From Candidatus Aminicenantes bacterium (GTDB taxonomy: Bacteria > Acidobacteriota > Aminicenantia > UBA2199), in assembly GCA_029938635.1 (NCBI GenBank), contig JAOZUQ010000005.1, forward strand, positions 1,363 through 65,362: a stretch of DNA of 64,000 nucleotides. The letters are read 5' to 3'. A model generated the notes under the pieces. That model had not been told where the DNA came from. It made no database searches and was given only the letters and a program-made list of their open reading frames with translations. Made by a program: the position numbers and the translations under genes. This document shows positions 3,360 through 58,773 of the stretch, in pieces. Within the stretch, counting starts at the first letter, position 1; every line of letters starts with the position of its first letter.

Positions 3360-3360
3360 T

Positions 3361-10223: not shown

Positions 10224-10943
10224 CTAATTTAGTTTGTTAAGGATATCTTCCAGCCATTTTATTTTTGCAGTCTGAATGTTAGGGCTGGGGTGTGAGTAAA
10301 GTTTAGGGTGGCCGGGAGATACGATGCCTGATGTTCTGAAATCTTCCAGAAATTTTAATGCTTTCTCTGCAAGCGGAAGCAGGCTTTTATCCCTGCCCCA
10401 TCCGAGAATTACCGGAGAATCTTTTTTGCACATCTGGAAAACCTTTTCTCTCTCCTTTTTTCTTGTTCCGGAAAAAATTGTATGGACATCATTAAAATTA
10501 ATTTCAAACTCTTTTACCCGTTTGAAGAATTTAAGGCTTTTTGGTTCTCTTAAATCCGAAAGGTTAACGATCCGGACATGGTTCCATCCCATCTCGGCCA
10601 TTATTCTCATGACCTGATATTGAGTAACATCCGGTTTTGCAAAGACCATCTCAAGAGAAGCCAGTAATGGGGGCGCTTCTTTTATAGAGAGACCGGGTTC
10701 ACGGAATCCGAATTGCCTCGGCTCTGAAGAGCCGGGATTCATCATCACAAATATCGAATCTGGTTCAGAAGAGCTCAGGGTTAATGGCTCCGGTATGCTT
10801 TTAAAATATCCCCTCCTGAATATTTCTAGGATATTCCGGCACTTGATCTTCTCTTCACCCTCAGATATAAGATCATAATAACTGCCATAAACCGTAAAGA
10901 TATCTTTCAACTCCTCAGCATAAAGGAATTTAAACATTTTCAA
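10224..10943 (-). CDS. Hypothetical protein
   Basis: 239-aa ORF, 4-nt overlap with the upstream Memo-like gene, convergent with glmS. Contains a VMMNPGSS motif reminiscent of the DUF1643 family, but this is not verifiable here. Confidence 0.5.
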   Translation of the reverse strand: MKMFKFLYAEELKDIFTVYGSYYDLISEGEEKIKCRNILEIFRRGYFKSIPEPLTLSSSEPDSIFVMMNPGSSEPRQFGFREPGLSIKEAPPLLASLEMVFAKPDVTQYQVMRIMAEMGWNHVRIVNLSDLREPKSLKFFKRVKEFEINFNDVHTIFSGTRKKEREKVFQMCKKDSPVILGWGRDKSLLPLAEKALKFLEDFRTSGIVSPGHPKLYSHPSPNIQTAKIKWLEDILNKLN

Positions 10944-11755: not shown

Positions 11756-11797
11756 TTCATAAAAAATTGTATCATATAGGGAAAAATATATTGAGGG

Positions 11798-13072: not shown

Positions 13073-13078
13073 TTTAAC

Positions 13079-41281: not shown

Positions 41282-42391
41282 CTAGTAATTCTCCAGACGT
41301 GTCAATGTGGTGCTCAATTCAAGTACTTCCACCGGGCAATCCTTCCATCCACTTTCCCAGCATACAAGTAGTTCGCAGTTCTTCGTAAGCCTTTCGTTTT
41401 TTTTCAGATCGAGACTGTTTAGCGCAAATCCAAGGTTAACAGCTTCCCATTTTTCCTCTTCAGACGACTTGTTTCTTTTCCCTGAGAAACAATACCGGTC
41501 TAACCCGAAAGACTCAACTATAAAGTTCAACTCTTCACAAACCACTCCGAATATAAATATCACTCCCCGTGTATCGATCGGAGCAAATTTAATTCCTCTG
41601 AAATTCAGTGGGTTACCCTTTTCTTTTTCAGATTTTGTAATTGCAGGCTTAATAGTTTCAGGAATTATTTTTTTCTTCTTCTTTTTCTGAACATCCATAG
41701 CCATCAGGTTCTCGATCCCACCACCATCATCCGGAACATAATCAAAACTGGGCTCCGACTCTTCTTTACTCTTCCTGCTCTTCTCCTTATTTTCGATCTC
41801 ATCAATTGTAAGGATATTATCACTTCCGAAATTATCGCTGAATTTATCCGATTCGGATTTTTCAATGCCCATTTCATTTTTTTTAATGGAAACAAGTGTC
41901 TCCTCAAAATTTATCTTTGACTTCTTTTTGCTATCCTTTTTTTTGGTAACCATAATCGTTTTATCAGGAGAAACAATCTCGATAGGCCCTTCATCCATCA
42001 CAATGGTTTTATCAGGAGATGGCGCCGATTTCCGGTCATACTTGGATTTAGCAAGATTAAGTGCATCAGTAAGAGTTCTCCACCTCTGCTCATAATCTTC
42101 TTTTGAATATCTTCCGTTCTTTTCTATTAATGCATATGTAGGAGTTTCTCCGAACTCCTTCTCAATCCTGAGCAGGTCTTTAAGCAGGTCCTTATCTTTG
42201 ACCTCTTCAACAAAAGTCCCGTCTTCAAGTCCTGCTTCCCTCAGGGCATCATGCCATGAGCTGATATAGAAATTTATTGTACTAACAGGGATCATTGTAT
42301 TCTTTATGAAGTCTTTTTTCTTAAGGCTACTGGTTTTAAGGTTGGATGCCACCCTTTTTATCTCTTCTATGATCTGATTTTTATCATACAT
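41282..42391 (-). CDS. Hypothetical protein: two globular domains joined by a Lys/Glu/Ser-rich low-complexity linker
   Basis: 369 aa. Long KK/EE/SD-rich central region. C-terminal ~110 aa carries conserved Cys/Trp (..LLVCWESGWKDCP..). 2-nt spacing to the upstream purA. Confidence 0.55.
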   Translation of the reverse strand: MYDKNQIIEEIKRVASNLKTSSLKKKDFIKNTMIPVSTINFYISSWHDALREAGLEDGTFVEEVKDKDLLKDLLRIEKEFGETPTYALIEKNGRYSKEDYEQRWRTLTDALNLAKSKYDRKSAPSPDKTIVMDEGPIEIVSPDKTIMVTKKKDSKKKSKINFEETLVSIKKNEMGIEKSESDKFSDNFGSDNILTIDEIENKEKSRKSKEESEPSFDYVPDDGGGIENLMAMDVQKKKKKKIIPETIKPAITKSEKEKGNPLNFRGIKFAPIDTRGVIFIFGVVCEELNFIVESFGLDRYCFSGKRNKSSEEEKWEAVNLGFALNSLDLKKNERLTKNCELLVCWESGWKDCPVEVLELSTTLTRLENY

Positions 42392-43732: not shown

Positions 43733-44494
43733 TCAGAACCTCAGTGACATACATGTAAGGCCTCCATCCATCTTCCTCACTTCACTTACATTCAGGGTTA
43801 TTACCGGCTTATCAAGAGCGGCAAGCTGCTTGTGAGTATCGGGGAAACCTGCAGGAGTTATAAATGTTCCGTTTATCAGGAGTGTGTTTGCCGCATACTC
43901 TTCACCTTCTTTGATTATAAGCCTTTCGAAATCTGAAAACCCGGGAATATCTCTGAATACATATGTCATCAACATTTTCCCGTCTCCAAGATAATTCACC
44001 CCTGACTTAAGATGCAGTCCGTCACCTACACTAACTATATCAACAATATATCCGAATCTTTTCAGAATATCTGAAAGCTGATCTGCACCTTCTCTGTTCG
44101 TCCTTTCAGAGAGCCCAATAAAAAAATGGTTGTTTGCCTGCAGCACATCTCCTCCGTCAAGTACTCCCGGAGGTTTTATTCTCAGAGTATCTCTGAATCT
44201 CATCAGGATGAACTCAATTCCATCTTCTTCACCTTTTCTTGATTGTGCTCCGGGATTCGTTATAATTCCAATCTCAGGTATTATAACAGCTGTATCCTCT
44301 ACAAAATAAGCATCGGGATAACCAGGGAGAGGATCAAGTACAATAACATCAAGGCCGAGTTGTTTAAGAATATTTGTATATTCATTATGCTGAGACAAGA
44401 TCATATTGAAATCAGGATTTCCGAGTTCAGAGGTTGTTTCCCCACTACCGAAGTCTTCTCCCGGCATCCTTAGAATTGCAGTTTTAAAGCTCAT
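43733..44494 (-). CDS. Dimethylarginine dimethylaminohydrolase (DDAH)/amidinotransferase-family protein
   Basis: 253 aa. N-terminal ...AILRMPGEDF..., ...YFVEDTAVII..., C-terminal catalytic Cys context (GGLTCMSLRF) typical of the pentein fold. Confidence 0.75.
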   Translation of the reverse strand: MSFKTAILRMPGEDFGSGETTSELGNPDFNMILSQHNEYTNILKQLGLDVIVLDPLPGYPDAYFVEDTAVIIPEIGIITNPGAQSRKGEEDGIEFILMRFRDTLRIKPPGVLDGGDVLQANNHFFIGLSERTNREGADQLSDILKRFGYIVDIVSVGDGLHLKSGVNYLGDGKMLMTYVFRDIPGFSDFERLIIKEGEEYAANTLLINGTFITPAGFPDTHKQLAALDKPVITLNVSEVRKMDGGLTCMSLRF

Positions 44495-44594
44495 AAGCTC
44501 TCCTGAGAATTAATATTTAAACGTAGGAAAAAATAAAAATTTTTGCAATGATACAGCTGCCCGGAGGCAGCTGTAATATCGACAAAAAATAAAA

Positions 44595-46745
44595 TTACTT
44601 CTTAAGTCCTCTTTTTTTGAGAAGGGCATCTATCTTAGGTTCAGCTCCTCTGAACTTTTTGTAAAGTACCATCGGTTCTTCGGAACCACCTCTCGCAAGG
44701 ACATTATCCCTGAAAGCTTTAGCAGTTTTCTGATCAAAAAGTCCATTCTCCTTGAAAGCCTCAAATGCATCTGAATCGAGTACTTCCGCCCAGATATAAG
44801 CATAATAACCGGAATCATATCCACCTATTATATGAGCGAAATATGTGCTTCTGTATCTTGGAATAATCTCAGGGATCAGGCCTATTTTATTAAGATAATC
44901 TTTTTCAAATTTGTTTGTATCCCTTAGCTTCTCATCCTTCAATGTGTGCCAGTTCAGATCAAGATAACAGGCAGCAAGATATTCGAGTGTAACAAATCCC
45001 TGATTAAAAAGTTTGCTTGCATTTAACTTGTCAAGAAATTCCTGAGGGATCGGTTCCCCGGTTTTATAATGTTTTGCATAAACTTTCAGAACTTCAGGAT
45101 GAAGAGCCCAATGCTCCATGATCTGTGACGGGAGTTCAACAAAATCCCATGCAACATTTGTACCGGAAATCGACTCATATTTAACTGTTGAAAGAAGATT
45201 GTGAAGAGCATGCCCGAATTCATGAAAAAGTGTTGAAGCATCATCAGGGCTCAGAAGCGCCGGTTTGTCTCCAACCGGCTTTGAAGCATTAAGCACCATA
45301 TATACTACGGGAGTTATTTCCTTCCCGTTCTTATAATGGTAATCACGTACACTGCCGCACCAGGCACCACCCCTTTTGCTCTCTCTGGGGAAAAAGTCCA
45401 TATAGAGGATCCCGATATGGCTTCCATCCGATTCCAACACTTCAAAAGTAGTTACATCCTTATGATAGAGGGGGATATCCTTTCTCTCTACAAATTTTAT
45501 TCCATAGAGTTTATTTGCAACATAAAAAGCTCCTTCCCTTACATTCTCAAGTTTAAAATAAGGGCGGAGAACACCTTCATCAAAATCAAATTTTTCTTTT
45601 CTCAGTTTTTCCGTATAATACCACCAGTCCCAGGATGCAAGTTTAAATTTGCCACCCTCCTTGTCAATGATTTTCTGAAGTTCAGCTGCTTCACTTTTTG
45701 CATTTTTCAATGCGGGAACCCAAATTTGATCCAGAAGCTTATAAACATTCCCCGGGTTTTTTGCCATATTACGTTCAAGCCTGAAATCAGCGTGAGTATC
45801 AAAACCCATGATATTCGCCCTCTTTACCCTGAGCGATGCGATTTTTGCTACGATCTTTTTATTGTCGTTCTTATTGTTGTTATCACCACGGAAAATATAA
45901 CCTTTGTATAATTTTTCCCTCAGATCCCGTTTTTTTGAATACTTCAGGAATGGGGTCCAGCTCGGCCTCTGAGGAGTGAAAATCCATTCCCCTTTTTCTC
46001 CCATTGCCTCAGCCGTTTCTGCAGCTCCGTCAATAACAGATTGAGGAAGTCCTTCAAGATCCTCTTTCTTATCAATTACCATCTTAAATCCGTTAGTTTC
46101 AGCAAGAAGATTCTTTCCGAATTGCAGGCCTAATATGGATAATTCCTGATTGATCTTCCTTAGTTTTGTCTTATCCTCTTCATTCAGGTTCGCGCCGCCT
46201 CTGACAAACCCCTTATAATACTCCTCAACCACTTTCTTCTGTTCGAGATTGAGATTAAATTTGTCAACATTATCAAAAACACTTTTTACCTTTTTGAACA
46301 ATTTTGCACTCAAATTGATATCATCTCTATGCTTGGAGAGAAGAGGGGACATCTGTTTTGCAATATCTTGCATATGTTTGTTCGTCAAACTGCTGTAGAG
46401 GCTGAAGAAAACTCCGGAAACTTTAGATAAAAGTTCTCCGCTATACTCGAGAGCTTCGATCGTATTAACAAAATTCGGCTCTTTTTTACAGTCAATAATA
46501 GCCTGAATTTCTTTTTTGTGATCTTCCATCCCCTTTTTAAAAGCCGGAACATAATGGTCCTCTTTTATAAGATTAAAAGGCGGTACCTCAAACGGCGTAT
46601 CATACTTCTTAAAAAAAGGATTATCACACATCTTTTTCTCCTCCACCTTATCACCTGCCATAACAATTCCGCTGAGCAAAATAAACGTAATTATAAATAC
46701 CGGCAGTGAACCTAAAATTGATTTTTTCATATTTAATATTTTCAT
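44595..46745 (-). CDS. dcp: Secreted M3-family zinc metallopeptidase (peptidyl-dipeptidase Dcp/oligopeptidase-like)
   Basis: 716 aa. Signal/TM N-terminus. HEFGH zincin motif (LFHEFGHALHNLLS) and downstream Glu ligand region. Confidence 0.85.
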   Translation of the reverse strand: MKILNMKKSILGSLPVFIITFILLSGIVMAGDKVEEKKMCDNPFFKKYDTPFEVPPFNLIKEDHYVPAFKKGMEDHKKEIQAIIDCKKEPNFVNTIEALEYSGELLSKVSGVFFSLYSSLTNKHMQDIAKQMSPLLSKHRDDINLSAKLFKKVKSVFDNVDKFNLNLEQKKVVEEYYKGFVRGGANLNEEDKTKLRKINQELSILGLQFGKNLLAETNGFKMVIDKKEDLEGLPQSVIDGAAETAEAMGEKGEWIFTPQRPSWTPFLKYSKKRDLREKLYKGYIFRGDNNNKNDNKKIVAKIASLRVKRANIMGFDTHADFRLERNMAKNPGNVYKLLDQIWVPALKNAKSEAAELQKIIDKEGGKFKLASWDWWYYTEKLRKEKFDFDEGVLRPYFKLENVREGAFYVANKLYGIKFVERKDIPLYHKDVTTFEVLESDGSHIGILYMDFFPRESKRGGAWCGSVRDYHYKNGKEITPVVYMVLNASKPVGDKPALLSPDDASTLFHEFGHALHNLLSTVKYESISGTNVAWDFVELPSQIMEHWALHPEVLKVYAKHYKTGEPIPQEFLDKLNASKLFNQGFVTLEYLAACYLDLNWHTLKDEKLRDTNKFEKDYLNKIGLIPEIIPRYRSTYFAHIIGGYDSGYYAYIWAEVLDSDAFEAFKENGLFDQKTAKAFRDNVLARGGSEEPMVLYKKFRGAEPKIDALLKKRGLKK

Positions 46746-46866
46746 ATGGTTTTTACGAAATACAAATAATTATAGTTTTGTATTTCACCTCCTTTATTCT
46801 ATGATTATATAACGAAATCCTGAATTTTCAAATTACAAAAACAGGGTAGGATCAAGCGGATCTTAT

Positions 46867-47247
46867 TTACACCCTTCCTTCGGTAAGTTTCCTTATCATT
46901 CCGGTAAATTCTGATATATTTTTAATAGGCTTTTTGAACACAAGTTCGTCGGAAATCCCCAATTCTGCCAGAGACTCAGGGAGCGAATAGCCCATAGATC
47001 CGGTATGAATTATGAACTTCATTTCAGGCAGCAGTTTATTCAGTTTCGATATCAGCACATTTCCGTCTATACCGGGCAATCTCATATCAATAATACCAAT
47101 ATCCACTTTTTGATCAACAATCCTCTCAAGTGCTTCTTCACCGCTGTTAGCAGAAATAACTGTATATCCTTCATCTTCAAGATAAGCTTCAAGAGTAATA
47201 CGTACGATTTCTTCATCATCAACAAGCAATATTTTCACTGAAGACAT
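46867..47247 (-). CDS. Single-domain response regulator (CheY-like receiver, no output domain)
   Basis: 126 aa. ILLVDDEE...D (phospho-acceptor region IGIIDMRLPGIDG)...K. No DNA-binding domain. Stop/start overlap with the upstream kinase. Confidence 0.85.
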   Translation of the reverse strand: MSSVKILLVDDEEIVRITLEAYLEDEGYTVISANSGEEALERIVDQKVDIGIIDMRLPGIDGNVLISKLNKLLPEMKFIIHTGSMGYSLPESLAELGISDELVFKKPIKNISEFTGMIRKLTEGRV

Positions 47248-49442
47248 TATTTCTCCTCCAGAGGGAGTTTTATTATAAATTTTGTCCCTTTACCGGGTGT
47301 GGAGATCACATACATGGTTCCTTTATGGATATTTGTTATAATAAAATATGATACAGAAAGGCCCAGGCCGGTCCCGACTCCGATCTCCTTTGTTGTAAAG
47401 AATGGCTCAAATACCCTTTTTGTTGTCTCCCTGTCCATGCCCGGCCCGTTATCCTCAACTTCTATTACACCCAAAGACCCTTCTTTGAACAACCTTAGAG
47501 TAATCTCCGGATCTTCGGATTTTTCCTTGTTATCACTGATTGCATGTACAGCATTCTTCAAAAGGTTCAATAACACTTGCTGAAGCTCGTTCTCTGCACA
47601 TAAGATCTCAGGGAACTCATTCTCAAATTCCCGGGTAATTTTAATATGTCTGAAATCATACTTTTTCTTCAGATCATAATCATTCGTAGCAAGTTCAATT
47701 GTATTTTCAATAATAGAAGAGATATCTGCTTTTTCAAATTGCGATTCCGATCTTCTACTGAAATTCAGCATATTTGTAACTATATCTGAGGCCCTCTCGC
47801 CTGATCTTTGTATTACCTCAAGGAAATATATTATCTTTTGTTTCTCCAGATATTTAAAAATATCTTCAAGGTTAAGGTTAAGTTCCTCAGCTTTCTCACG
47901 ATTTACTTTAAAATCAGGTGAGACCCTTCTGAGAATATTCTGGACGCCCAGAAGTATTCCACCCAGAGGATTGTTGATCTCATGAGCCATCCCTGCAGCA
48001 AGGCCTCCCACAGACATCATCTTCTCAGTCTGGACCATCATATCCTCTATACGAATCCTGGTCGTAATATCATCCATTCTGATAACAGCACCTTCAACTC
48101 CATTTGATATCAAAGGATAGATCATTATGTCATTATATTTGAGTTCATCATCGACACGTTCAACAATTTTTTCCATTTTCTGGGGGATCTTCTCTTTTAT
48201 CGATTTCTGAAATTTTTCCAGCTGGGATGCGAATTGCGGGAATATATCCTCTATTTTTTTTCCGATAGCATCTTCAGGTACAAGTCCGGATTTTTTTTCA
48301 GCTTCAACATTCCATTGGGTAACTTTTCCATCCCTGTCAATTCCAATCAAAACCGAGGGCATAGAATCTATCATGTTCTTCAGGTAAAGCTGCATTTTCT
48401 CCATATCTTTTTTCTGAATTTTCAGGGATTCAGCCATTGAATTAAAAAGCTTTGAGAGATCTCCTATCTCATCTTTTGATTTGATCCCGATCTTGATATC
48501 AAAGTCCCCTTTTGAAATGGACTGTGCGCTTTCCGATAGAGTCTTTAACGGCTTCCCTAACCATCTACCGATCAAAACACTCACAATTATTACAATGAAA
48601 AACACTGTGAAGAATACCAGCATCATACTCCGGACATCCAGATTCTTAGTTTTAAGAATGTCACTTATATCGTAGGCAACTATTACACTACCGATCTCCT
48701 TGTCTACATGATCATATATCTTAAAAGTTCCGATCAGGTACTTTTCCTCCCCAATGGTCATCTCCCCTTTGGCGTTTATCAGATCAAAAGAATCTGGAAA
48801 AAATCTCTCACCATTATTATCGAGCATGGTTGTCCCTATCCCTTTGTCATCCGAGAAGATAAAAATTTCTGCTCTCACCATATTCCTTATCTGATCGGAA
48901 AACTCAGAATCGAGAGGCAACTCAAGTACCAGATCTCCCACTTTTTCAAAAGTATTCTGGTTCATTATAGGAGAGATGGAAACAAAGCATATATTTTCTC
49001 CCAAATTTACAATTCCTGTCTTTCTGAGCAATGAATTCCGGCTTCTCTTAAAAAATGGTTCATAAAGGAGTGTTTTCTCATTTATATAACTCTCTGATGA
49101 ATTTTTCACATCAACTATAATCCTGTTATCAAGATCTACTACTTTGGCATTGATTGAACTGAGGAAGAAAACTTTCAGTTCAAGTGACGTTGCTATTTCT
49201 TCGGGTTCGTCAATATTCCCGGCAATTTCATTCAATTCTGATATGAACAATCCTTTTCTTGATAATTCACCCAGATACCCGTGAAAGACCCCCGCCGTCT
49301 GTTCTTTCAACTTTAGAAGGTTCTCTTTTGCCGTGTTCTCATATTTGGTTGACAAAAAGTTGATCGAATAATAGATCGAAAATAATGATGAGATCCCTGC
49401 CACAATTATCAGGAACACTAGAATTTTAGTTCTTATTTTCAC
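47247..49442 (-). CDS. Sensor histidine kinase (periplasmic sensor domain, TM, HAMP, PAS, HisKA, HATPase_c)
   Basis: 731 aa. ~270-aa extracytoplasmic region between two TM segments, HAMP (...LSESAQSISKGDFDIK...), H-box MAHEINNPL, N/G1/G2 boxes (NLLKNAVHA, DNGPGM, GTGLGL). Confidence 0.9.
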   Translation of the reverse strand: MKIRTKILVFLIIVAGISSLFSIYYSINFLSTKYENTAKENLLKLKEQTAGVFHGYLGELSRKGLFISELNEIAGNIDEPEEIATSLELKVFFLSSINAKVVDLDNRIIVDVKNSSESYINEKTLLYEPFFKRSRNSLLRKTGIVNLGENICFVSISPIMNQNTFEKVGDLVLELPLDSEFSDQIRNMVRAEIFIFSDDKGIGTTMLDNNGERFFPDSFDLINAKGEMTIGEEKYLIGTFKIYDHVDKEIGSVIVAYDISDILKTKNLDVRSMMLVFFTVFFIVIIVSVLIGRWLGKPLKTLSESAQSISKGDFDIKIGIKSKDEIGDLSKLFNSMAESLKIQKKDMEKMQLYLKNMIDSMPSVLIGIDRDGKVTQWNVEAEKKSGLVPEDAIGKKIEDIFPQFASQLEKFQKSIKEKIPQKMEKIVERVDDELKYNDIMIYPLISNGVEGAVIRMDDITTRIRIEDMMVQTEKMMSVGGLAAGMAHEINNPLGGILLGVQNILRRVSPDFKVNREKAEELNLNLEDIFKYLEKQKIIYFLEVIQRSGERASDIVTNMLNFSRRSESQFEKADISSIIENTIELATNDYDLKKKYDFRHIKITREFENEFPEILCAENELQQVLLNLLKNAVHAISDNKEKSEDPEITLRLFKEGSLGVIEVEDNGPGMDRETTKRVFEPFFTTKEIGVGTGLGLSVSYFIITNIHKGTMYVISTPGKGTKFIIKLPLEEK

Positions 49443-50968
49443 TGTTTCCCCAGCAGGAACAGATCAATCATTCCCAGACTGTCCAATTTGATCTTCCCCA
49501 GTTTTTTGTTATAAAGGATCAGATTGATATCCTGGTAAAGTGGAATGAGCAAAGCCCTTTCAACTACCAGATTGTTCAGTTTTATATAATATCTTCCTCT
49601 CTTGACGGGATCTTTTATAGTCCTTGCCTTTTCAATCATTTTAAGAATATCAATATTTTTCCCGGTTGAAAAATTAGCCAAACCTTCACTCTGTATTTTC
49701 TTGGAAAACAAAGGACTTATTATACTGAACGGATCAGGATAATCTGCTATCCATGAAGAAAATGTAAGGTCATAATCTCCCTTCGAAACTCTGGAAAAAT
49801 ATTCATTCATATCTACAATAACCACTTTAAGCCGAATCCCGACTTTTTTCAGATTTTTTGAAAAAATATTAACAATTGGGAGATGAAGGTCTGTATCCCT
49901 GTGTAACAGGAAGCTCAGTTGAAATCCTTTTTGTAATCCCTCTTTATTCAGTAATTTACGGGCTTTCTCTACAGACAGAGGGTATTTGTCAAGGTCACAA
50001 TCATAACCGGACATCCCCTGTGGGAAAAGAGAGCACAGAGGCTTTACGTGATTCTGATAGACCAGCTTTAATATATCCTTATTCCATAAATAATTAATAG
50101 CTTTTCTTACACCGGTCTTTTTCAGATACCTGTTTTTCATATTGAAGGCTATATAAGAAGTGGAAAGAGAAGAGGAATATGAATATCCCACCCACTCATA
50201 TCCTTTGAATATAACCATTTTTGAAATCGAAAAACTGGTTAAAACATCAATCTTCTGTTTTCTGAAAAGCTCAAATAATTTGTCCATATTTGGTTCAATA
50301 ATTGTAATGTATTTATCGATACCGGGTTTCCCTTTCCAATAACCATTGAAAGATTCAAGTACTATTTTTTTCCCTTTTTTCCACTCCTTTACTCTGTAAG
50401 GGCCTGTCCCCACAGGTTTTAAACGGAATTTTTCTTTCATCCTTTTTAAAGCTGCAGGCGAAACTATCGAAGTGCAGCTTACAGACAAAGTAGCAGGAAA
50501 TGGGAAGAAAGGTTCTTTTAAAATGAATTGGACTTTATACTTGCCGACCTTTTTTATACCTTTTAAAAATGGGAAAATTTCTTTAAAAAGGACAAATTCC
50601 CCATATTTATATTTCTCCTCCATTTGCCTTTCAAACGTAAAAACAACCGCATCAGCATCAAATGGCGTGCCATCATGAAATTTCACTCCACGCCTCAACC
50701 GGAATGTCCATACTTTCCCTTCTTTGTCCGAATCCCATGCTAAAGCAAGAGAAGGTTTGATCTTCAGAGTTCCCGGCTCCAATTCGACGAGCCTGTTAAA
50801 AATATTTGCAAGATAAACAGATGATGTATTATCCCACGCTTCTGCAGGATCAAGCGTTGTGGGCCCTCCTCTGTTTCCGGATCTGATCACTCTCTCTTTT
50901 CCGGCTGCTATTGGAATCGTAATCAACAAAACAATCAGAAATAAAATGAGCCCTTTATAGTATTTCAA
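49439..50968 (-). CDS. ABC-type family-5 (peptide/nickel/opine) solute-binding protein, no cognate transporter genes
   Basis: 509 aa. Signal peptide, SBP_bac_5 hallmarks (...RFHDGTPF..., ...PVGTGPY...). 4-nt overlap with the kinase gene. Confidence 0.85.
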   Translation of the reverse strand: MKYYKGLILFLIVLLITIPIAAGKERVIRSGNRGGPTTLDPAEAWDNTSSVYLANIFNRLVELEPGTLKIKPSLALAWDSDKEGKVWTFRLRRGVKFHDGTPFDADAVVFTFERQMEEKYKYGEFVLFKEIFPFLKGIKKVGKYKVQFILKEPFFPFPATLSVSCTSIVSPAALKRMKEKFRLKPVGTGPYRVKEWKKGKKIVLESFNGYWKGKPGIDKYITIIEPNMDKLFELFRKQKIDVLTSFSISKMVIFKGYEWVGYSYSSSLSTSYIAFNMKNRYLKKTGVRKAINYLWNKDILKLVYQNHVKPLCSLFPQGMSGYDCDLDKYPLSVEKARKLLNKEGLQKGFQLSFLLHRDTDLHLPIVNIFSKNLKKVGIRLKVVIVDMNEYFSRVSKGDYDLTFSSWIADYPDPFSIISPLFSKKIQSEGLANFSTGKNIDILKMIEKARTIKDPVKRGRYYIKLNNLVVERALLIPLYQDINLILYNKKLGKIKLDSLGMIDLFLLGKQ

Positions 50969-52506
50969 TTTTCCTCCACATATGCATCCTTGAAGATTAC
51001 ATGGGACAATTGGTTTAGATACAAGCCTTTAATTTTATTCTTAAAAACAAGGAAATCATTAACATTGTAAAGGGGGATCCAGGGACAATCCCTTGCAATG
51101 ATCTCCTGTGCCCTGAAATACATTTTTTCTCTCTTCTTATTATCTCGGATTCCACTTGCATCATTAAGCAGTCGGGTAAGCTCAGGATCCGAATACCCTG
51201 ACCGATTGAACTCACTATTCTTATCAGCAAATGTATCGAATAAAAAAACATCAGGATCGGGAATATCGGCTGACCATCCCATCATAATCATATCATGTCG
51301 TTTACTTCCGGCTGCTTTTCTCAGATCAGTGAAAGAAAGCGGTACTTTATAAACATGTATTCCGACTCTGGCTGCAAATTTTTTGATCACTCCGGCAATC
51401 TCCTCAAGAGGTTTTGAATTCCCTGAATAGTAAAGAGACACCCTGGTACCTTTTTTTATTTGTCCCCGTTTCAACAGATCCCCGGCTTTTTCCAGATCAA
51501 AAGATCTATCTTTAATATCAGGATTAAACCCGAAAATACCACTTGGAATGGGAGTAGTTGAATTTGATGCAAAATTCTGGAAAATTCTTCCTATTAACGG
51601 GCCTTTATTTATCAGGTGAGCAAACGCAATTCTGGCATTTCTGTTTTGAAATATGCCTTTTTGTGTGTTGAATGCAAGATAGTGTACAGAAACAGAGGGA
51701 ACAGAAATGGTATTGAATTCACGTCTTCCCCTGATCTCCTCATATTCTTTTGATGATCTCACCATCAATAAAGATGCTTTCCCGGATTTCAGTTGTATCA
51801 TCCTCCATGCAACATCATTAACGACCTTAAAAACAATCTTGGGAATCCGAACCTCCTTTCCCCAATATTTTTCATTCCTTATCACTGTAAGATATTTATT
51901 TTGAACACTTTTAAAATATTTATAGGGGCCGGTCCCTATCGGCCTGAATTCCTCTGAGACATAGGATAAAGGTGCAACTATCATATGCTTGGGACTTGCC
52001 AGGGAATAAAGGAAAGGGACAAAAGGTTTTTCCAGTACTATCTCAATTGTATATTCATCAATACTGCCAATACTTAAAATATGGGAATGAATTCTGTTCC
52101 AGTTATAGTACTTTTTTTTATTCAGCATCCGGGTTCTGAAATTCAATTCAACTGCAGCAGAATTAAATTTTTCCCCATTGTGAAATCTCACTCCTTTCCT
52201 TAACTTAAATATCCACTTTTTCCCGTCATTTTCAGTCCTCCAACTGACAGCAAGTGCAGGTTCAACACGGGAAGATCCTTTTTTATATCTGACCAGACCT
52301 TCATAAATGTTGGATATGGCCTCGGACGAATACACATCTGATGTAAGTCCCGGATCAAGGGTGGAAATATATGTACTCTTCAGATAGATAAGGGGGGAAT
52401 CTGCAGCATAAAATGGAATAATGAATAAGATTAAGAGAATGACCAGTCCCGTTGCAACTCCGGACTTACCAATAGAAAATCTACTATTCATTTCAATATG
52501 CTCCAA
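50965..52506 (-). CDS. Family-5 solute-binding protein (paralog)
   Basis: 513 aa. Signal peptide, ...RFHNGEKF..., ...PIGTGPY... 4-nt overlap with the downstream SBP. Confidence 0.85.
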   Translation of the reverse strand: MEHIEMNSRFSIGKSGVATGLVILLILFIIPFYAADSPLIYLKSTYISTLDPGLTSDVYSSEAISNIYEGLVRYKKGSSRVEPALAVSWRTENDGKKWIFKLRKGVRFHNGEKFNSAAVELNFRTRMLNKKKYYNWNRIHSHILSIGSIDEYTIEIVLEKPFVPFLYSLASPKHMIVAPLSYVSEEFRPIGTGPYKYFKSVQNKYLTVIRNEKYWGKEVRIPKIVFKVVNDVAWRMIQLKSGKASLLMVRSSKEYEEIRGRREFNTISVPSVSVHYLAFNTQKGIFQNRNARIAFAHLINKGPLIGRIFQNFASNSTTPIPSGIFGFNPDIKDRSFDLEKAGDLLKRGQIKKGTRVSLYYSGNSKPLEEIAGVIKKFAARVGIHVYKVPLSFTDLRKAAGSKRHDMIMMGWSADIPDPDVFLFDTFADKNSEFNRSGYSDPELTRLLNDASGIRDNKKREKMYFRAQEIIARDCPWIPLYNVNDFLVFKNKIKGLYLNQLSHVIFKDAYVEEN

Positions 52507-52560
52507 GAAATAACCATCACAATATAAAATAATAAATAAAATGAACTAAATTATCAAATA

Positions 52561-54132
52561 CTATTCCTGTACAACCTTTTTGTTATCGAAGAACACATCT
52601 CTGAAGTTCAAAAATGAAAGCGGCTGGATAGAGAGATTTCTTACATTTTTATTGCGGACCAAAATATTGTTCATGTAGAAAAGGGGTATCCATGGGAGAT
52701 CTCTGTGAATGATCTTCTGAGCATTCCAATACAAACTCTCTCTTGTTTTTTTGACAGAAGTTTTTCGTCCTTTATCTATTAATCCGGTAACTTGTTTATT
52801 ATAATATCCGGATCTGTTCAACCTTCCGGAATTTTCGGTAAAGTTTGAATATAGATAAACGTCAGCATCCGGTATATCCCCGGCCCATCCAAGCATGAGC
52901 ATATCATGCTTCTCATATCCGATGTTAACAAGCTCGGTGAATGGGATCGGCATTTTTTTTATGTTCATCCCTATCTTCCTGGCTGAACGGGACAAAACAC
53001 TGGCAATATTTCCAAGATTCTTCGAATTCTCTGAATAATAGAGAGAAACCTCGATTTTATCTTTATATCCTGACTCATCTTTCAATCTTGCGGCTTTATT
53101 GATGTTAAACTCATAATCTTTCAGATCCGGATAATGACCGAACATCCCCGGAGGAACAGGGGTTGTAGCGTTTATTGCAAATTCCTGGAAGATATTTTTT
53201 ACCATTACTTTCTTGTTAAAAAGATGAGCAAGTGCCTGACGCATTTTTTTGTTCTTAAACGGACCTTTCCTAACATTGAAAGCAAGGTAATGGACTGAAG
53301 TAGACAATCCTGAAATAATTTTCAAAACCTTAGAATTTGCAACCTCATTATATTCATGCCATGACTCGATATAGGCAACATCAGCACTCCCGTTCTTCAT
53401 CTGAAGAACACGCCAGTTTTGATCTTTAACAACTTTAAATATAACACCTGACAAATACGCAGGCTTCCCCCAATATGAATCATTTCTGATCAACTTGACA
53501 AATTTACCCTCCTTCCTGTTTCCGAACCTGAAAGGCCCGGTCCCATATGGAATAAAATTTCCGGCTTTATAAGATGAAGGTGCAATTATTGATGAATGAG
53601 GACTGGCCATCTGAAACAAAAAAGGGGCAAAAGGCTCTGAAAGAATAAATTCCACCACATAATTATCAATCTCTCTGACTTTCTTAAGATAACTATAGAA
53701 TGAATTCCATTCTTTATACTTTATTTTATCGGATAGTCTTGTGTTGAAAGATTTTACTACAGCTGAAGCATTTAAAAGTTCACCATTATGGAACTTCACA
53801 CCTTTTCTGATCTGAAACTCCCACCTCTTTCCATTATTACTCATCGTCCAGCTTTCAGCAAGGCAAGGTTCTATATCAGGCCTCTCCTTTTTATATCTGG
53901 TCAATCCTTCAAATATATTCGTGATTATTTGAGAAGAATATTTGTCTGTGGTAAGCCCCGGGTCGAATGTGATCACATCCACATGGCCAAGATATATCAG
54001 AGTATTATCCTGAGATGATGAATAAATTGATGGAAAAAACAATAAAACCAACAGGATAGATAAAACAACAACCTTAATCCTCGGGAAACTTTTTTTATCC
54101 TGCACGAGTCTTTGATAAAAGAAGTTCCCCAT
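52561..54132 (-). CDS. Family-5 solute-binding protein (paralog)
   Basis: 523 aa. Signal peptide, ...KFHNGELL..., ...PYGTGPF... Confidence 0.85.
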   Translation of the reverse strand: MGNFFYQRLVQDKKSFPRIKVVVLSILLVLLFFPSIYSSSQDNTLIYLGHVDVITFDPGLTTDKYSSQIITNIFEGLTRYKKERPDIEPCLAESWTMSNNGKRWEFQIRKGVKFHNGELLNASAVVKSFNTRLSDKIKYKEWNSFYSYLKKVREIDNYVVEFILSEPFAPFLFQMASPHSSIIAPSSYKAGNFIPYGTGPFRFGNRKEGKFVKLIRNDSYWGKPAYLSGVIFKVVKDQNWRVLQMKNGSADVAYIESWHEYNEVANSKVLKIISGLSTSVHYLAFNVRKGPFKNKKMRQALAHLFNKKVMVKNIFQEFAINATTPVPPGMFGHYPDLKDYEFNINKAARLKDESGYKDKIEVSLYYSENSKNLGNIASVLSRSARKIGMNIKKMPIPFTELVNIGYEKHDMLMLGWAGDIPDADVYLYSNFTENSGRLNRSGYYNKQVTGLIDKGRKTSVKKTRESLYWNAQKIIHRDLPWIPLFYMNNILVRNKNVRNLSIQPLSFLNFRDVFFDNKKVVQE

Positions 54133-54270
54133 CTTTATAATATAGTATAGGCTTACAGGTTATTCAATAATTAACTCCTGGAAAAGGAGAGTGATTATCA
54201 TAGTTGACGAGAATTCATGCTCAGGAGCCTGTATTAAAACTATGAATAAACGGAGCTATTATATTAGAGA

Positions 54271-55839
54271 CTATTCCTGCACAGACTCATTATCACTGAA
54301 AAACACATCATTAAAATTTATTAGAGACAAAGGTTGTATTATAAGGTTTTTTACACTTTTATTGTGAATAAGAAATTTTTTCCTGTAATACAAAGGCAAC
54401 CAGGGAAGATCATCATGAAGGATCCTCTGCACTTCCATATATAACTTTATCCTCACTTCTGTATTTGATATCATTCGTGCTTGATTAAGAAGTTTTGACA
54501 CTTCCGGATTATTATATCCCGTACTGTTAGAACTGCTCACGCCGCTAATAAAATTTGGATAAAGATAAACATCTGCATCAGGTATATCGCCTATCCATCC
54601 AAGAATAAGCATATCATGCTTTTCAAATCCAAGATTCACAAGTTCGGAAAAAGGTACAGGCATTCTTTTAATGTTCAGCCCTATCTTCTTTGCGGAACGG
54701 GCTAAGACAACAGCAATGTTTTCATAATTTTCTGAACTATCGGAATAGTAGAGAGAAACATCGACCTCTGATTTGTATCCCGCATCATTTTTCTTTTTTT
54801 TTGCTTCCGCAATATTAAAACTATAATCTTTCAATTCCGGATTATGACCAAACACCTGAGGCGGTACAGGAGTTGTTGCATTTTCAGCAAATGATTGAAG
54901 TATTTTTTTTACTACTGCTTCTTTTTTGATAAGATGTGCTACTGCCTGCCTCATTCTTTTGTCCCGAAAGGGCCCCTTCATCGTATTAAAAGCTATGTGA
55001 TAGATCCCGGGAGACTGCCCGGATATGATATCCACATTCTTTTCACTTGCAACATCTTCAAGGATAATTTCAGATTCAATCAGAGCAGCATCCGCATTCC
55101 CGTTCTTAATCTGAAGTATCCGCCAATTCTGGTTCTTGACAACCTTGAAGATTACGGCAGAAAGAAGTGGCCGGTTACCCCAATAAAAATTATTCCTGAG
55201 AAGCTTTACAAACTTCCCCTTTTTCCTCTCACCAAATCTGAAAGGGCCGGTGCCGATAGGAGAGAAAACTTCCCCATCATAAGAGGAGGGGGCTATAATT
55301 GAAGCATTTGTACTTGCCAACCGGTAAAGAAACGGAGCATAAGGTTCAGTGAGAAGGAACTCCACCGTATAATTATCAATTTCCCTGACCCTCCTCAGAT
55401 ATGTATAGTATGTATTCCATTCATGATAATTTTTTTTATTATTCAGCCTTCTGGAGAACGAACTCACAACAGAAGCAGCGTTAAATAATTCACCATTGTG
55501 AAATTTAACCCCCTTTCGCAATATGAAAACCCACCTCTTCCCGTTATCATATATTTTCCAACTTTCTGAAAGTCCGGGCTTGATCTTAATAGTTCCGGAT
55601 TTATAGCTGGTCAAACCCTCAAAGATATTCTCAATTATTTGAGATGAATACATATCACCGACCATCCCAGGATCACTTGTGATCATATCCACAGGGCTGA
55701 GAAAGATCAGGGTATTATCCAGAGGAGATGAATAAACTGATGGGAAAAACAATAAAACCAGCAGGATAGACAGAACAACCTTGATCCCCGTGAGTCTGAT
55801 ATTATCCAGTTTGTCACTCCTATAACAGAGATACTGCAT
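54271..55839 (-). CDS. Family-5 solute-binding protein (paralog, ~65% aa identity to 52561..54132)
   Basis: 522 aa. Signal peptide, ...KFHNGELF..., ...PIGTGPF... Confidence 0.85.
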   Translation of the reverse strand: MQYLCYRSDKLDNIRLTGIKVVLSILLVLLFFPSVYSSPLDNTLIFLSPVDMITSDPGMVGDMYSSQIIENIFEGLTSYKSGTIKIKPGLSESWKIYDNGKRWVFILRKGVKFHNGELFNAASVVSSFSRRLNNKKNYHEWNTYYTYLRRVREIDNYTVEFLLTEPYAPFLYRLASTNASIIAPSSYDGEVFSPIGTGPFRFGERKKGKFVKLLRNNFYWGNRPLLSAVIFKVVKNQNWRILQIKNGNADAALIESEIILEDVASEKNVDIISGQSPGIYHIAFNTMKGPFRDKRMRQAVAHLIKKEAVVKKILQSFAENATTPVPPQVFGHNPELKDYSFNIAEAKKKKNDAGYKSEVDVSLYYSDSSENYENIAVVLARSAKKIGLNIKRMPVPFSELVNLGFEKHDMLILGWIGDIPDADVYLYPNFISGVSSSNSTGYNNPEVSKLLNQARMISNTEVRIKLYMEVQRILHDDLPWLPLYYRKKFLIHNKSVKNLIIQPLSLINFNDVFFSDNESVQE

Positions 55840-55963
55840 GTTATAAGTATAGTATCAGAGAACAGATTATTCAAGAAATTTACATGACAAAAAACATTAT
55901 CAGCTAATTCAGTCTCCTTTTTAGAACATATCATCTGTGCTATAATTTTTCCGGAGGTATTTT

Positions 55964-57199
55964 ATGGAATTTCCCGGAATGATGGACAGGTTTTTCAGTT
56001 ATGTAAAGATAGATACTCAGTCTGATGAGGAGTCGGAATCTTATCCTTCAACAAAGAAACAATTCGACCTTTTAAACAAATTAGAAGTTGAACTGAAGGA
56101 ATTGGGGCTTGATGATGTTGAGCAGAACAAGTGGGGGTACGTCACAGCCACACTAAAGACAAATCAAAAAAGTGATGTCCCGACTATCGCACTTATTGCT
56201 CATGTTGACACATCGCCGGATGTATCAGGAAAAGATGTTAATCCTGTTATCCATAATAATTATGACGGAAAAGATATAGTCCTCTCAGAAAAAGAGAACG
56301 TGATCTTAAAAGTTGATGAAAATCCGATGCTGAATGACAAGATAGGAAAGACGGTGTTCACAACAGACGGGACAACTCTGCTTGGTGCCGACAACAAGGC
56401 AGGAATTACAGAGATAATTTGTGCTGTAAAATACCTTAAGGAGAACCCGGAGGCTCCAAGACCGAACATCAGAATACTTTTCACTCCGGATGAGGAGGTC
56501 GGCCGGGGAACTGAGAATATCACCAATGAAAATATTAAAGCCGACTATGGTTATACAATAGATGGTGAAAGACTAGGGGAGATCGAGGACGAAACCTTCT
56601 GTGCAGATACACTTGAACTGGATGTCACAGGGATAATGGTCCATCCCGGATATGCTAAAGATAAAATGATAAATGCTATAAAAATAGTTTCAGAGATCGT
56701 TGACCATTTCCCGAAGAACGGCCTTGCGCCGGAGACAACGGAAAAGAGAGAAGGTTATATTCACCCCTTTACAATTTCCGGCGGTGGAGAGAAAACAAGT
56801 GTAAAGATCCTGCTCAGGGACTTCGAAGAATCGGGACTCAGAGAAAAAGAGAATTACATAAGAGAAGTTGTTGACACCATAATGAAAAAATATAAGGGAG
56901 CTAAAGCGGAGATCAAAGTTTCAGAATCCTACAGGAACATGAAACAGATCCTCGATAAATATCCTGAAGTGACCAACAAAGCGATAAAAGCTGTGGAAAT
57001 GGCCGGTATAGAACCTCTCAAGAATATAATTCGTGGAGGGACAGATGGAGCAAGGCTCAGTTTCATGGGACTCCCGACACCGAATATTTTCACGGGCGGA
57101 TCAAATTTTCATTCAAGATATGAGTGGATCACCCTTGAGGATATGTACAAAGCATCAGAAGTGATCGTCAACCTGATGAAACTCTGGACCATTAAATAA
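55964..57199 (+). CDS. pepT: Peptidase T (tripeptide aminopeptidase, M20B)
   Basis: 411 aa. N-terminal MMDRFFSYVKIDTQSDE..., metal-ligand motifs ...IAHVDTSPD..., ...GADNKAG..., C-terminal ...GGTDGA... Confidence 0.9.
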   Translation: MEFPGMMDRFFSYVKIDTQSDEESESYPSTKKQFDLLNKLEVELKELGLDDVEQNKWGYVTATLKTNQKSDVPTIALIAHVDTSPDVSGKDVNPVIHNNYDGKDIVLSEKENVILKVDENPMLNDKIGKTVFTTDGTTLLGADNKAGITEIICAVKYLKENPEAPRPNIRILFTPDEEVGRGTENITNENIKADYGYTIDGERLGEIEDETFCADTLELDVTGIMVHPGYAKDKMINAIKIVSEIVDHFPKNGLAPETTEKREGYIHPFTISGGGEKTSVKILLRDFEESGLREKENYIREVVDTIMKKYKGAKAEIKVSESYRNMKQILDKYPEVTNKAIKAVEMAGIEPLKNIIRGGTDGARLSFMGLPTPNIFTGGSNFHSRYEWITLEDMYKASEVIVNLMKLWTIK

Positions 57200-57235
57200 A
57201 TAGCTTCACAAACATCATCAATTTGAAATTATAGT

Positions 57236-57365
57236 CAGGCTTTCGCCATCATCTGCTTTGCTCCCGCTCCGGATGTTCTCATCCGTCCCCGCTTCCTGTC
57301 CCCGGGGTGATCGATATTAACGAGTCACCCCTGAGGTGGCCGCTACAGCAGATAAGATGGCTACG
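57236..57365. ncRNA. Unclassified GC-rich structured element (possible small RNA or 3'UTR structure)
   Basis: ~130 nt at well over 50% GC in a mid-30s % GC genome. Nested hairpins CGGATG-ttct-CATCCG and GGGGTGA-N14-TCACCCC. Long-range complementarity ATCATCTGCT(57249-)/AGCAGATAAGATG(57345-). No ORF. Confidence 0.25.
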
Positions 57366-57459
57366 CCTAATACACTCCCTGCTTGTAAAACAAAACTATG
57401 TTGACACACAAGTGAATGTTTGATATCTTGTCAACGTTTCTTCTTCAGAGCCTTTAGCT

Positions 57460-57735
57460 ATGAAGACGAGGTGAGAGCCCGGTACTCTACGACCCTCACC
57501 AACCTGTTCTGACAGGGATAAGGTGGTTTACCGGATAGGGTTACAAACCCTGAAATAGTGATCGGGAGGCTGTAATGAATTCATTAATGATAATGTGAAG
57601 CCCTTAGGGGCATTCCAGTCTGTTATCTTCCGGATCGAATTCTGATCTGGCCAGAGGTTATAGGTCAGAGGTATAAAGAGTTTGAAAGTTACCGCTAACC
57701 CCTTACCTATTACCTGAATCTCAAAAATAAATTAA
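57460..57735 (+). promoter_or_regulatory. Candidate lysine riboswitch (L-box) leader of asd-lysC
   Basis: Long GC-enriched untranslated leader before an asd-lysC operon. Contains GAGGTG..., CTGAAA..., ...TCTGGCCAG..., ...GTCAGAGG... elements similar to L-box conserved blocks. A TTGACA-N17-TATCTT promoter-like sequence lies at 57403-57431. Identification is tentative. Confidence 0.3.
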
Positions 57736-57744
57736 GGAGAAGAA

Positions 57745-58773
57745 GTGAAGAATAATAATAAAATAAATGTTTGTGTTATGGGGGCCACAGGTTTGATCGG
57801 ACAGGCCTTCGTTAATATATTATCATCTCATCCTGTATTCCAAATTGTTTCTTTGACCGGGAGCAAAACAGGAATAGGAGAGAAATACAGGGATGCAATA
57901 AACTGGAAACTGCCTTTGGCTTTTCCGGACAAAGCAGGAGATATAATTATCAGTAAACCGGATAAAAAATCTCTTGGAAACAGAGGAATTCAAGTAGTAT
58001 TTTCGGCATTGCCATCTGATATTGCCGGAGATATTGAAGATGATCTCAGGAATGAGGGATTTTTTGTTTTTACTAATGCAGGAGCTCACAGATATGATAC
58101 AGATGTACCGATATTAGTACCTGATATTAACCCGGGTTCCATAAAACTGATAGAAGAACAGGGATTCCCGAAAAGCGGTTTTATAATAACAAATCCGAAT
58201 TGCAGTTCAGCCGGCCTTTCAGTTGCACTTGCTCCATTAAAAAGATTCGGGATAGAAGAAGTGACTGTCTCCACTTATCAGGCAATATCCGGAGCTGGAT
58301 ATCCGGGACTATCTGCAATGGACATTTCAGGAAATGTGATCCCTCATATTGAAGGTGAAGAGGAAAAGATAGAGAAAGAGACCAGGAAAATATTGGAGAT
58401 TGATCCTGAAATATTTGCAACATGTGTGAGAGTACCCGTTCTCTATGGTCATTTAGAAACTATATGGGTTGAATTTTCCGGATCTCCATGCCCGGAAGAT
58501 ATTCAAAAAGCATGGTCAAAATCTGTTCCGGAATTCAACTTACCATCACTGACAAGCAGATCTGTGGAATATTTGACCGGGCCGGGATATCCCGGCAATC
58601 ACCTCTCTTTCCGGGGAGATCCTCCCGGAATGCAGGTTTACACTGGCGGATTGAAAAAGAGAGGGCGGCGGATCGGATTCAACCTCCTTGTAAACAATCT
58701 GGTAAGAGGCGGAGCAGGCGGTTCTGTAGCTAATGCTGAACTTTTTCATGAGATCTACCGGGGGAGCAAATGA
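57745..58773 (+). CDS. asd: Aspartate-semialdehyde dehydrogenase
   Basis: 342 aa. GTG start 5 nt after an AAGGAGA SD. NAD(P)-binding VCVMGATGLIGQ, catalytic-region ...NCSSAG..., C-terminal dimerisation domain. Confidence 0.9.
   Translation: MKNNNKINVCVMGATGLIGQAFVNILSSHPVFQIVSLTGSKTGIGEKYRDAINWKLPLAFPDKAGDIIISKPDKKSLGNRGIQVVFSALPSDIAGDIEDDLRNEGFFVFTNAGAHRYDTDVPILVPDINPGSIKLIEEQGFPKSGFIITNPNCSSAGLSVALAPLKRFGIEEVTVSTYQAISGAGYPGLSAMDISGNVIPHIEGEEEKIEKETRKILEIDPEIFATCVRVPVLYGHLETIWVEFSGSPCPEDIQKAWSKSVPEFNLPSLTSRSVEYLTGPGYPGNHLSFRGDPPGMQVYTGGLKKRGRRIGFNLLVNNLVRGGAGGSVANAELFHEIYRGSK

Follow-up and report, generated by a model that had tools for sequence, protein, structure and literature searches.

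Four family-5 solute-binding proteins linked to a sensor kinase in Candidatus Aminicenantes: a probable two-component sensor of extracytoplasmic peptides

A 64-kb stretch of DNA (hereafter the window) from a metagenome-assembled genome (MAG) of Candidatus Aminicenantes carries, at 46867-55839 on the minus strand, four genes for family-5 solute-binding proteins (SBPs), followed by the genes for a histidine kinase (HK) and a response regulator (RR). Here we describe a computational analysis of this locus, which probably encodes an SBP-dependent two-component sensor of extracytoplasmic peptides. As the pairing of SBP and kinase genes without a transporter was found in about 22 related loci, the SBPs are most likely peptide co-sensors and not parts of an import system. 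A first-pass annotation of the same DNA had favored SBP-dependent signalling of the LuxP/LuxQ type over transport. This proposal is now supported by the conserved SBP-kinase pairing, by the lack of ATP-binding cassette (ABC) transporter genes in these loci, and by the modelled fold of the kinase sensor domain, for which LuxQ is the best match.

Organization of the locus

The open reading frame (ORF) calls gave six genes in one orientation, which are listed below together with the sensor domain of the kinase (aa, amino acids).

54271-55839, minus strand: SBP1, family-5 solute-binding protein, 522 aa; PF00496 E 1.9e-79
52561-54132, minus strand: SBP2, family-5 solute-binding protein, 523 aa; PF00496 E 1.5e-83
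50965-52506, minus strand: SBP3, family-5 solute-binding protein, 513 aa; PF00496 E 1.3e-74
49439-50968, minus strand: SBP4, family-5 solute-binding protein, 509 aa; PF00496 E 3.3e-83
47247-49442, minus strand: sensor histidine kinase HK, 731 aa; HAMP, PAS, HisKA and HATPase_c (Pfam)
48639-49355, minus strand: extracytoplasmic sensor domain of HK, residues 30-268 (AF2 model and Foldseek); proposed SBP docking platform
46867-47247, minus strand: receiver-only response regulator RR, 126 aa; PF00072 the sole significant domain

The first-pass annotation had described four co-strand SBP genes with 4-nt overlaps and an overlap between kinase and receiver, and this layout was confirmed: SBP3 and SBP4 overlap by 4 nt, SBP4 and HK also by 4 nt, and HK and RR share 1 nt. 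Gaps of 138 nt and 54 nt separate SBP1 from SBP2 and SBP2 from SBP3, respectively. The 4-nt overlap of SBP4 with HK recurs in orthologous loci, and SBP4 thus appears to be translationally coupled to the kinase.

Conserved association of SBP and kinase genes

Loci in related genomes (designated L001, L002 and so on) amounted to about 22 distinct loci, forming three clades and a set of remote members, the latter located by the sensor-domain profile or as distant relatives of SBP4. Candidatus Aminicenantes MAGs, of which some are mis-binned or carry the label 'Acidobacteriota', are the source of all 14 genome loci and also of the full-length HK orthologues (47-100% identical). A family-5 SBP gene was found directly upstream of every kinase carrying this sensor domain, mostly with a 4-nt overlap at the junction, and at least two SBP genes adjoin the kinase in 19 of the about 22 loci, two being the usual number. 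Co-occurrence of the pair in relatives, proposed earlier as a check, was therefore invariant, even though kinase identity across loci falls to about 21-28%. The output, on the other hand, varies by clade (stand-alone REC, none, hybrid HK-REC or REC-GGDEF), as do the transmitter and the PAS content across the loci.

In clade 1 (kinase 52-88% identical), the order is a divergent PepT gene, SBP-A, SBP-B, HK and REC, often followed by an M3 peptidase gene; the three closest relatives have three SBP genes and the window four. Clade 2 (about 32% identity for the whole kinase and about 40% for the sensor) retains only SBP-A, SBP-B and HK, with no receiver, amid unrelated housekeeping genes. Clade 3 is organized as SBP, SBP and then a hybrid HK-REC. 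Among the remote members, one has SBP-SBP-hybrid HK followed by REC-PAS-HK, and another has SBP-HK-REC-SBP, both of its SBPs being 37-38% identical to E. coli DppA. In a third, P0238 (contig JGI 3300072015, genes at 8001-13347), an SBP 31% identical to SBP4 precedes a dCache_3-HAMP-GAF kinase and then REC-GGDEF. P0238 had been chosen as a positive control for a classical ABC operon and proved to be another SBP-dCache_3 kinase pair; its gene order suggests that the pairing of a family-5 SBP with a dCache_3 kinase also feeds c-di-GMP signalling.

In two related loci (L008, 5230-12077; L023, 9533-12598), several ORFs take the place of single SBP and kinase genes, or the genes are called differently. 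Both loci lie on contigs of several hundred kb to more than 1 Mb, and the disruption is more likely due to frameshift-type assembly errors than to pseudogenisation.

A neighbour-joining tree separated the SBPs into two old lineages, A and B. Each of them mirrors the clade structure of the kinases, indicating that SBP-A, SBP-B and the kinase have been inherited as a unit; the ancestral unit is therefore SBP-A/SBP-B/kinase, with two distinct SBPs. SBP4 is the ancestral lineage-B member. SBP3 is the ancestral lineage-A member, and its orthologues hold the same position in all clade-1 loci. SBP1 and SBP2 belong to a young offshoot of lineage A ('a0'), within which SBP1 groups with SBP2, L005_a0 and L007_a0. 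The closest relatives (L005, L007 and L008) each have one gene of the SBP2 type, which in L005 and L007 is 58-61% identical to SBP2 and occupies the same position. SBP1 is the youngest a0 duplicate, with no separate counterpart in the sampled relatives.

Pairwise identity is 60% between SBP1 and SBP2 and 40-45% between either of these and SBP3, while SBP4 shares only 26-28% identity with each of these. The value of about 65% given in the first-pass annotation for the two upstream SBPs is thus slightly too high; its suggestion of a recent expansion agrees with the finding of two or three SBPs in relatives and four in the window.

LuxQ-like fold of the kinase sensor domain

HK is composed of a transmembrane segment (TM1), an extracytoplasmic tandem-PAS/dCache-like domain of about 240 residues, a second transmembrane segment (TM2), HAMP, PAS, HisKA and HATPase_c, in agreement with the large periplasmic domain noted before. 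As read from the translation, the H-box (AHEINNPL) and the N, G1, F and G2 boxes (LLKNAVHA, DNGPGM, FEPFFTTK and GTGLGLS) are all intact. The best NCBIfam match was an AtoS-like transmitter at 229 bits, under the cutoff.

The sensor domain (residues 30-268) was modelled by AF2 with an alignment of 17 orthologues. In the model, which has a pLDDT of 88.7 and a pTM of 0.86, two alpha/beta modules come after a long helix at the N-terminus. In a Foldseek search, the top PDB matches were the periplasmic domains of LuxQ (3c38, 2hje, 2hj9 and 1zhh), with TMq 0.60-0.64 and TMt about 0.70 (TM scores within 0.60-0.71), including chains from LuxP-LuxQp complexes (2hj9 and 1zhh). Ligand-binding dCache domains ranked below LuxQp, with TMt about 0.45-0.55; dCache-type matches included Mlp24/37, PctA and DctB. 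LuxQp signals only through its SBP, LuxP. The likeness is confined to the fold: a sequence search of the PDB with the sensor profile gave no match, with no LuxQ chain at E<=10, and Pfam detected only weak CHASE4, dCache_3 and sCache_3 signals.

The family of this sensor domain is small. An exhaustive profile search of 1.84 billion cluster representatives detected only 26 proteins at E<=1e-10, and four fragments were all that a word-indexed search with this profile recovered. In all 26 the domain is near the N-terminus, of full-length proteins of about 650-885 aa or fragments thereof, and those for which domains or gene context were examined are histidine kinases. Kinases of about 860-970 aa that share the transmitter were considered as possible fusions with an SBP domain; this was rejected because their N-termini are multi-pass membrane domains.

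Receiver-only regulator

The conserved residues D10/D11, D54, T82 and K106 of RR are intact in the translation. Response_reg was the only domain detected by Pfam, without any output domain, and the locus contains no second RR. The closest solved relatives of RR include the single-domain receivers Spo0F, Thermotoga RR468 and TrrA. Receivers 46-55% identical to RR come after kinases that have the same transmitter but unrelated sensors, indicating that the kinase transmitter and the receiver-only regulator form a reusable cassette. As this cassette pairs with unrelated sensors, the constant association is that of the SBPs with the sensor domain, and not with the output.

L020 and L021 are examples, each with this transmitter and a 126-aa receiver. 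In L020 (4811-9281), they lie behind a multi-pass membrane sensor, beside a REC-HD-GYP-type protein. In L021 (1242-8076), the kinase has a large periplasmic domain and is preceded by an overlapping gene for a 579-aa protein without Pfam match; a hybrid kinase and an M1 aminopeptidase come after.

The first-pass annotation expected a chemotaxis-like or phosphorelay partner for RR. Related loci contain hybrid kinases, a REC-kinase of a second tier and a REC-GGDEF protein, which suggest multi-step or branched signalling rather than chemotaxis.

Survey of ABC transporter genes

The transporter survey covered the window and stretches of up to 20 kb from relatives. LSGGQ, Walker-A and EAA motifs were found in no frame of the 64-kb window, and BLASTP detected no homologues of E. 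coli DppB, DppC, DppD and DppF in the window or in any related locus. By Pfam annotation, no ABC or permease family (BPD_transp_1, ABC_tran) was assigned to the called genes of the about 22 loci, up to 10 kb on each side, and no ABC gene was present in about 3 kb past the right end of the window. The earlier statement that the locus is devoid of permease and ATPase genes is thus borne out over 64 kb by both motif scan and BLASTP. ABC genes in the operons of relatives, which the same annotation had named as evidence for an ordinary transporter, were found in none of the about 22 loci within the flanks of up to 10 kb.

These results bear on the possibility of a dual role, in which the SBPs would present ligand to the kinase and also feed an Opp/Dpp-type ABC importer encoded elsewhere, like CBP with ChiS and BctC with BctE. 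Transporter SBPs do serve in several characterised SBP-kinase systems (Table 1 of PMC8050422), family-5 SBPs encoded apart from their permease are known, mppA and hbpA being listed without an adjacent transporter, and the gaps and separate promoter-like sites of SBP1 and SBP2 (see below) are compatible with high independent expression. The SBP genes of CBP-ChiS and BctC-BctE, however, stay in the transporter operon, whereas here the SBP gene stays with the kinase gene, overlapping it by 4 nt, and permease and ATPase genes are lacking within up to 10 kb throughout the about 22 loci. We consider a dual role unlikely.

Putative ligands of the SBPs

SBP1-4 matched PF00496 (SBP_bac_5), the family of cluster-C binding proteins for peptides, nickel and opines, with scores of 252-281 bits, far above the cutoff of 32.4. 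Reading of the translations by eye showed hydrophobic export signals at all four N-termini, with small-residue cleavage motifs (VYS/SP, IYS/SS, FYA/AD and IAA/GK) and no lipobox Cys, as for proteins located outside the cytoplasm. The gene for an outer-membrane protein (OMP) beta-barrel in the window supports a diderm envelope. The closest solved relative was H. pylori AibA/HbpA (6ofq, E 1e-66) for SBP3 and E. coli DppA (8z1y/1dpp, E 1e-59) for SBP4. NCBIfam cutoffs for orthology to a named SBP were not reached (DppA 202 bits against 1005, NikA 196 against 393, GsiB 193 against 594).

In DppA and OppA, an Asp (D408 and D419, respectively) forms a salt bridge with the alpha-amino group of the bound peptide, and R355 of DppA binds the C-terminal carboxylate of the dipeptide. 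An Asp equivalent to D408/D419 was found by alignment in all of SBP1-4, within the motif GWIGDIPDA in SBP1 and within the OppA-like motif WIADYPDP in SBP4; it is invariant in lineage B, which follows the pattern WxADYP(D/E)P. In the same alignment, this Asp is missing from the E. coli GsiB and NikA controls. An Arg aligns with R355 only in SBP4 and a few lineage-B orthologues, the alignment being gapped and variable there. In the lineage-A proteins of clade 2, the Asp is missing and a deletion like that of NikA is present. The SBPs of the remote locus L027 have counterparts of both D408 and R355 of DppA.

Because the Asp is present in SBP1-4 and absent in NikA and GsiB, peptides are favored over nickel and opines among the three classes of ligand raised by the first-pass annotation, and peptides are the most likely ligands as judged from these residues. 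Given the poor conservation of R355 and the loss of the Asp in clade-2 lineage A, some members of the family may have ligands other than classical peptides.

A non-peptide ligand, such as a metal chelate or nickel, an opine, glutathione, haem, AI-2 or an oligosaccharide, might be presented to the kinase in the same manner. The NCBIfam scores for NikA, GsiB, SapA and CntA are about equal to that for DppA, all far under the cutoffs, and AibA, the top PDB match of SBP3, is annotated as AI-2/haem-binding; the variable R355 position and the clade-2 lineage-A proteins, with their NikA-like deletion, point in the same direction. Against this stand the amino-terminus-anchoring Asp, kept in SBP1-4 and throughout lineage B yet missing from both controls, and the peptidase genes that flank the operon. 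A non-peptide ligand for this system thus seems rather improbable.

Proposed mechanism and its evaluation

We propose the following pathway. The exported SBP4 (lineage B) and SBP3, SBP2 and SBP1 (lineage A) would bind periplasmic peptides, perhaps including dipeptides freed by the secreted Dcp-like peptidase encoded next to the locus. Once loaded, the SBPs would dock on the kinase at its LuxQ-like tandem-PAS sensor domain, and the resulting change could travel through TM2, HAMP and PAS to the HisKA/HATPase core, which would set the phosphorylation of D54 in the receiver-only regulator. The receiver may act on a partner by protein contact or inside a multi-step relay. The extra lineage-A copies would broaden or split the range of ligands. 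What the analysis establishes is the gene content, the lack of ABC genes in the DNA surveyed, the conserved linkage of SBP and kinase genes, the modelled fold of the sensor domain and the conserved Asp; contact between SBPs and kinase, the peptide nature of the ligand and an output in peptide catabolism are inferred.

Several observations weigh against this proposal. The orphan family-5 SBPs MppA and HbpA work with distal permeases, and the transporter survey here was of the window and nearby flanks. SBP1 and SBP2 have intergenic gaps and promoter-like sites of their own, which could allow independent and strong expression of the kind seen for transport SBPs. An Arg equivalent to R355 is not conserved across lineage B, and the D408-type Asp is lacking in clade-2 lineage A. 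RR has no output domain. Finally, the kinases AgtS and AruS adjoin sbp genes, yet no interaction was found (PMC11113362).

The AgtS and AruS cases, in which adjacency alone misled, also favor a purely transport-related function, in which the SBPs would be accessories of a distal peptide ABC importer and the kinase would sense directly, or via its cytoplasmic PAS domain, merely regulating or being co-regulated with the SBP genes; the dCache-type fold of the sensor, which in many receptors (Mlp24/37, PctA, DctB) binds small ligands directly, and the presence of that PAS domain are consistent with this. It is nevertheless very unlikely, as SBPs and this sensor domain are the sole constant partners across the about 22 loci while transmitter, PAS content and output vary, LuxQp, which has no ligand pocket, is the top structural match, ahead of ligand-binding dCache_1 domains (TMt 0.70 versus about 0.45-0.55), and transport SBPs are not typically coupled in translation to a low-abundance kinase, as SBP-B appears to be.

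An extension of the peptide co-sensor model, which is speculative and quite doubtful, would make the kinase an obligate two-SBP receptor. One lineage-A and one lineage-B SBP would sit on different modules or protomers of the tandem-PAS dimer, so that two peptide pools would be read by the kinase in AND fashion or as a ratio. The lineage-A duplicates SBP3, SBP2 and SBP1 would then form an exchangeable co-receptor array that retunes the kinase to several ligand classes, and DppA/OppA-like SBPs with dCache_3-type kinases would represent a widespread, undescribed module with interchangeable outputs (bare REC, hybrid kinase or REC-GGDEF).

Flanking genes and upstream sites

The following features adjoin the locus.

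44595-46745, minus strand: secreted M3 peptidyl-dipeptidase, Dcp-like, directly downstream of RR; PF01432 E 1e-136
55964-57199, plus strand: PepT, tripeptide aminopeptidase, divergent from SBP1; NCBIfam PepT 535 bits
55846-55874, minus strand: promoter-like site before SBP1, TTGAAT-17-TATACT; homologous site before SBP2 at 54139-54167

The Dcp-like gene scored 670 bits with NCBIfam Dcp, under the cutoff of 944, and an N-terminal signal sequence was read from its translation. An M3 peptidase gene follows RR in L002, L005, L006, L007 and L008 and is absent in L001 and L004. The score of PepT exceeds its cutoff of 255 bits, and wherever a clade-1 locus extends far enough upstream, pepT is transcribed divergently from the first SBP gene; in L002, a gene for a CARDB protein lies between PepT and the first SBP gene. 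The Dcp-like peptidase is a candidate producer of a dipeptide signal, a candidate member of the regulon, or both, and PepT is likewise a candidate regulon member. Regulation of pepT and dcp by the system is suggested by adjacency in clade 1.

Alignment of the regions upstream of SBP1 and SBP2 revealed a shared block, TTGAATAA-N-ATACTATA, which is suggestive of a promoter-like site copied together with the SBP gene. Promoter and terminator scans gave site counts equal to the chance expectation from shuffled sequence. The -10 element of these sites stops just about 6-8 nt short of the start codon ATG, and the mRNAs of SBP1 and SBP2 may therefore be leaderless or very short-leadered. No Rfam regulatory RNA was detected within 44000-58000.

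The remainder of the window holds genes for cell division, nucleotide metabolism, amino-acid catabolism and the OMP beta-barrel, and no transporter for these SBPs. The amino-acid catabolism genes encode glutamate dehydrogenase (34713-36032, minus strand), an enzyme of DDAH/arginine-deiminase fold (43733-44494, minus strand) and aldehyde:ferredoxin oxidoreductase (61807-63684, plus strand), and fit a peptide-fermenting lifestyle.

Other features of the window are as follows. Two adjacent genes on the minus strand (37489-39345 and 39498-40634) encode secreted paralogues with repeated modules of about 100 aa (NITWTP..C..YKINIFK...LQLTASG...IRVK); the 618-aa paralogue gave weak matches to Kre9_KNH and other Ig-like Pfam families, and the 378-aa paralogue none. 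Two genes overlapping by 4 nt (29602-32808 and 32805-34553, minus strand) both encode PPDK_N proteins (PEP-utilising, ATP-grasp), the larger with an additional C-terminal nucleotidyltransferase domain; the GC content is low around this pair (0.35 against about 0.39), and L001 and L002 lack both genes in the corresponding syntenic region. A dip in GC to 0.32-0.33 and a switch in GC skew were observed at 2001-6000, where a 500-aa ORF without Pfam match (3941-5443) is located, together with the OMP beta-barrel gene (5673-6233). The 369-aa product of the gene at 41282-42391 (minus strand) has an HNH_repeat (homing-endonuclease-associated repeat) at its N-terminus and is rich in Lys and Glu in the middle; the gene is syntenic between purA and the thioredoxin gene in all clade-1 relatives.

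Comparison with known SBP-receptor systems

About 10 SBP-kinase systems have been characterised, including CBP-ChiS (PMC8050422, PMC9602780). Control of a kinase by an SBP is thus already known. In the literature on peptide sensing in Aminicenantes, DppA-kinase systems and the combination of dCache_3 with SBP, we found no description of a DppA/OppA-like SBP pair with such a kinase.

LuxP-LuxQ, the autoinducer-2 sensor of Vibrio, resembles the present system in that a dedicated SBP without transporter is encoded directly upstream of the kinase, and in that the periplasmic tandem-PAS domain of LuxQ is the best structural match to the sensor model; moreover, remote relatives of the present system are hybrid kinases, as is LuxQ. 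It differs in that LuxP belongs to Peripla_BP_4 and not to SBP_bac_5, and in that the sensors share no sequence similarity, HK scoring 81 bits with NCBIfam LuxQ (LuxQ_Vibrio) against a cutoff of 1200. The present system also has two to four SBPs per kinase, a non-hybrid kinase and a stand-alone receiver.

CBP-ChiS, the chitin sensor of Vibrio, includes the only characterised kinase under a family-5 (PF00496) SBP, and the ChiS sensor has been called dCache-like (PMC8050422), as in the combination found here. CBP, however, has chitin oligosaccharides as ligands and is encoded in the ABC-transporter operon for (GlcNAc)2, and ChiS is an atypical DNA-binding kinase, whereas the present system has no linked transporter, a peptide-type Asp anchor and a bare-receiver output. 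DppA-Tap of E. coli and AibA-TlpB of H. pylori involve the closest relatives of SBP4 and SBP3, respectively, and are family-5 SBPs signalling to membrane receptors. Their partners are chemoreceptors (four-helix-bundle or sCache) and not kinases, and DppA is encoded next to its own DppBCDF transporter.

TorT-TorS, XylFII-LytS, HptA-HptS and AioX-AioS are likewise signalling-only SBPs encoded beside a kinase gene, in which binding of the loaded SBP displaces the transmembrane helices; they belong to other SBP families, with one SBP per kinase and DNA-binding regulators of known regulons. E. coli MppA (which works with OppBCDF) and H. influenzae HbpA are family-5 SBPs without an adjacent permease or ATPase gene ('mppA/-', 'hbpA/-'). 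They show no linkage to a kinase gene, whereas SBP-kinase linkage is the conserved feature of the present system.

If the proposed function is correct, the system would provide a route by which the protein-fermenting, uncultured Aminicenantes sense extracellular peptides, and a compact system for the study of several SBPs sharing one receptor. It would also flag a recurrent module of family-5 SBP and dCache_3 kinase, now annotated just as 'ABC transporter substrate-binding protein'. None of the about 10 characterised systems includes DppA/OppA-type transporter-less co-sensors, or two conserved distinct SBPs per kinase. Compared with these systems, what is new is the conserved architecture with two SBPs, the absence of linked transporter genes, ligands that are probably peptides, and the recent growth to four SBPs.

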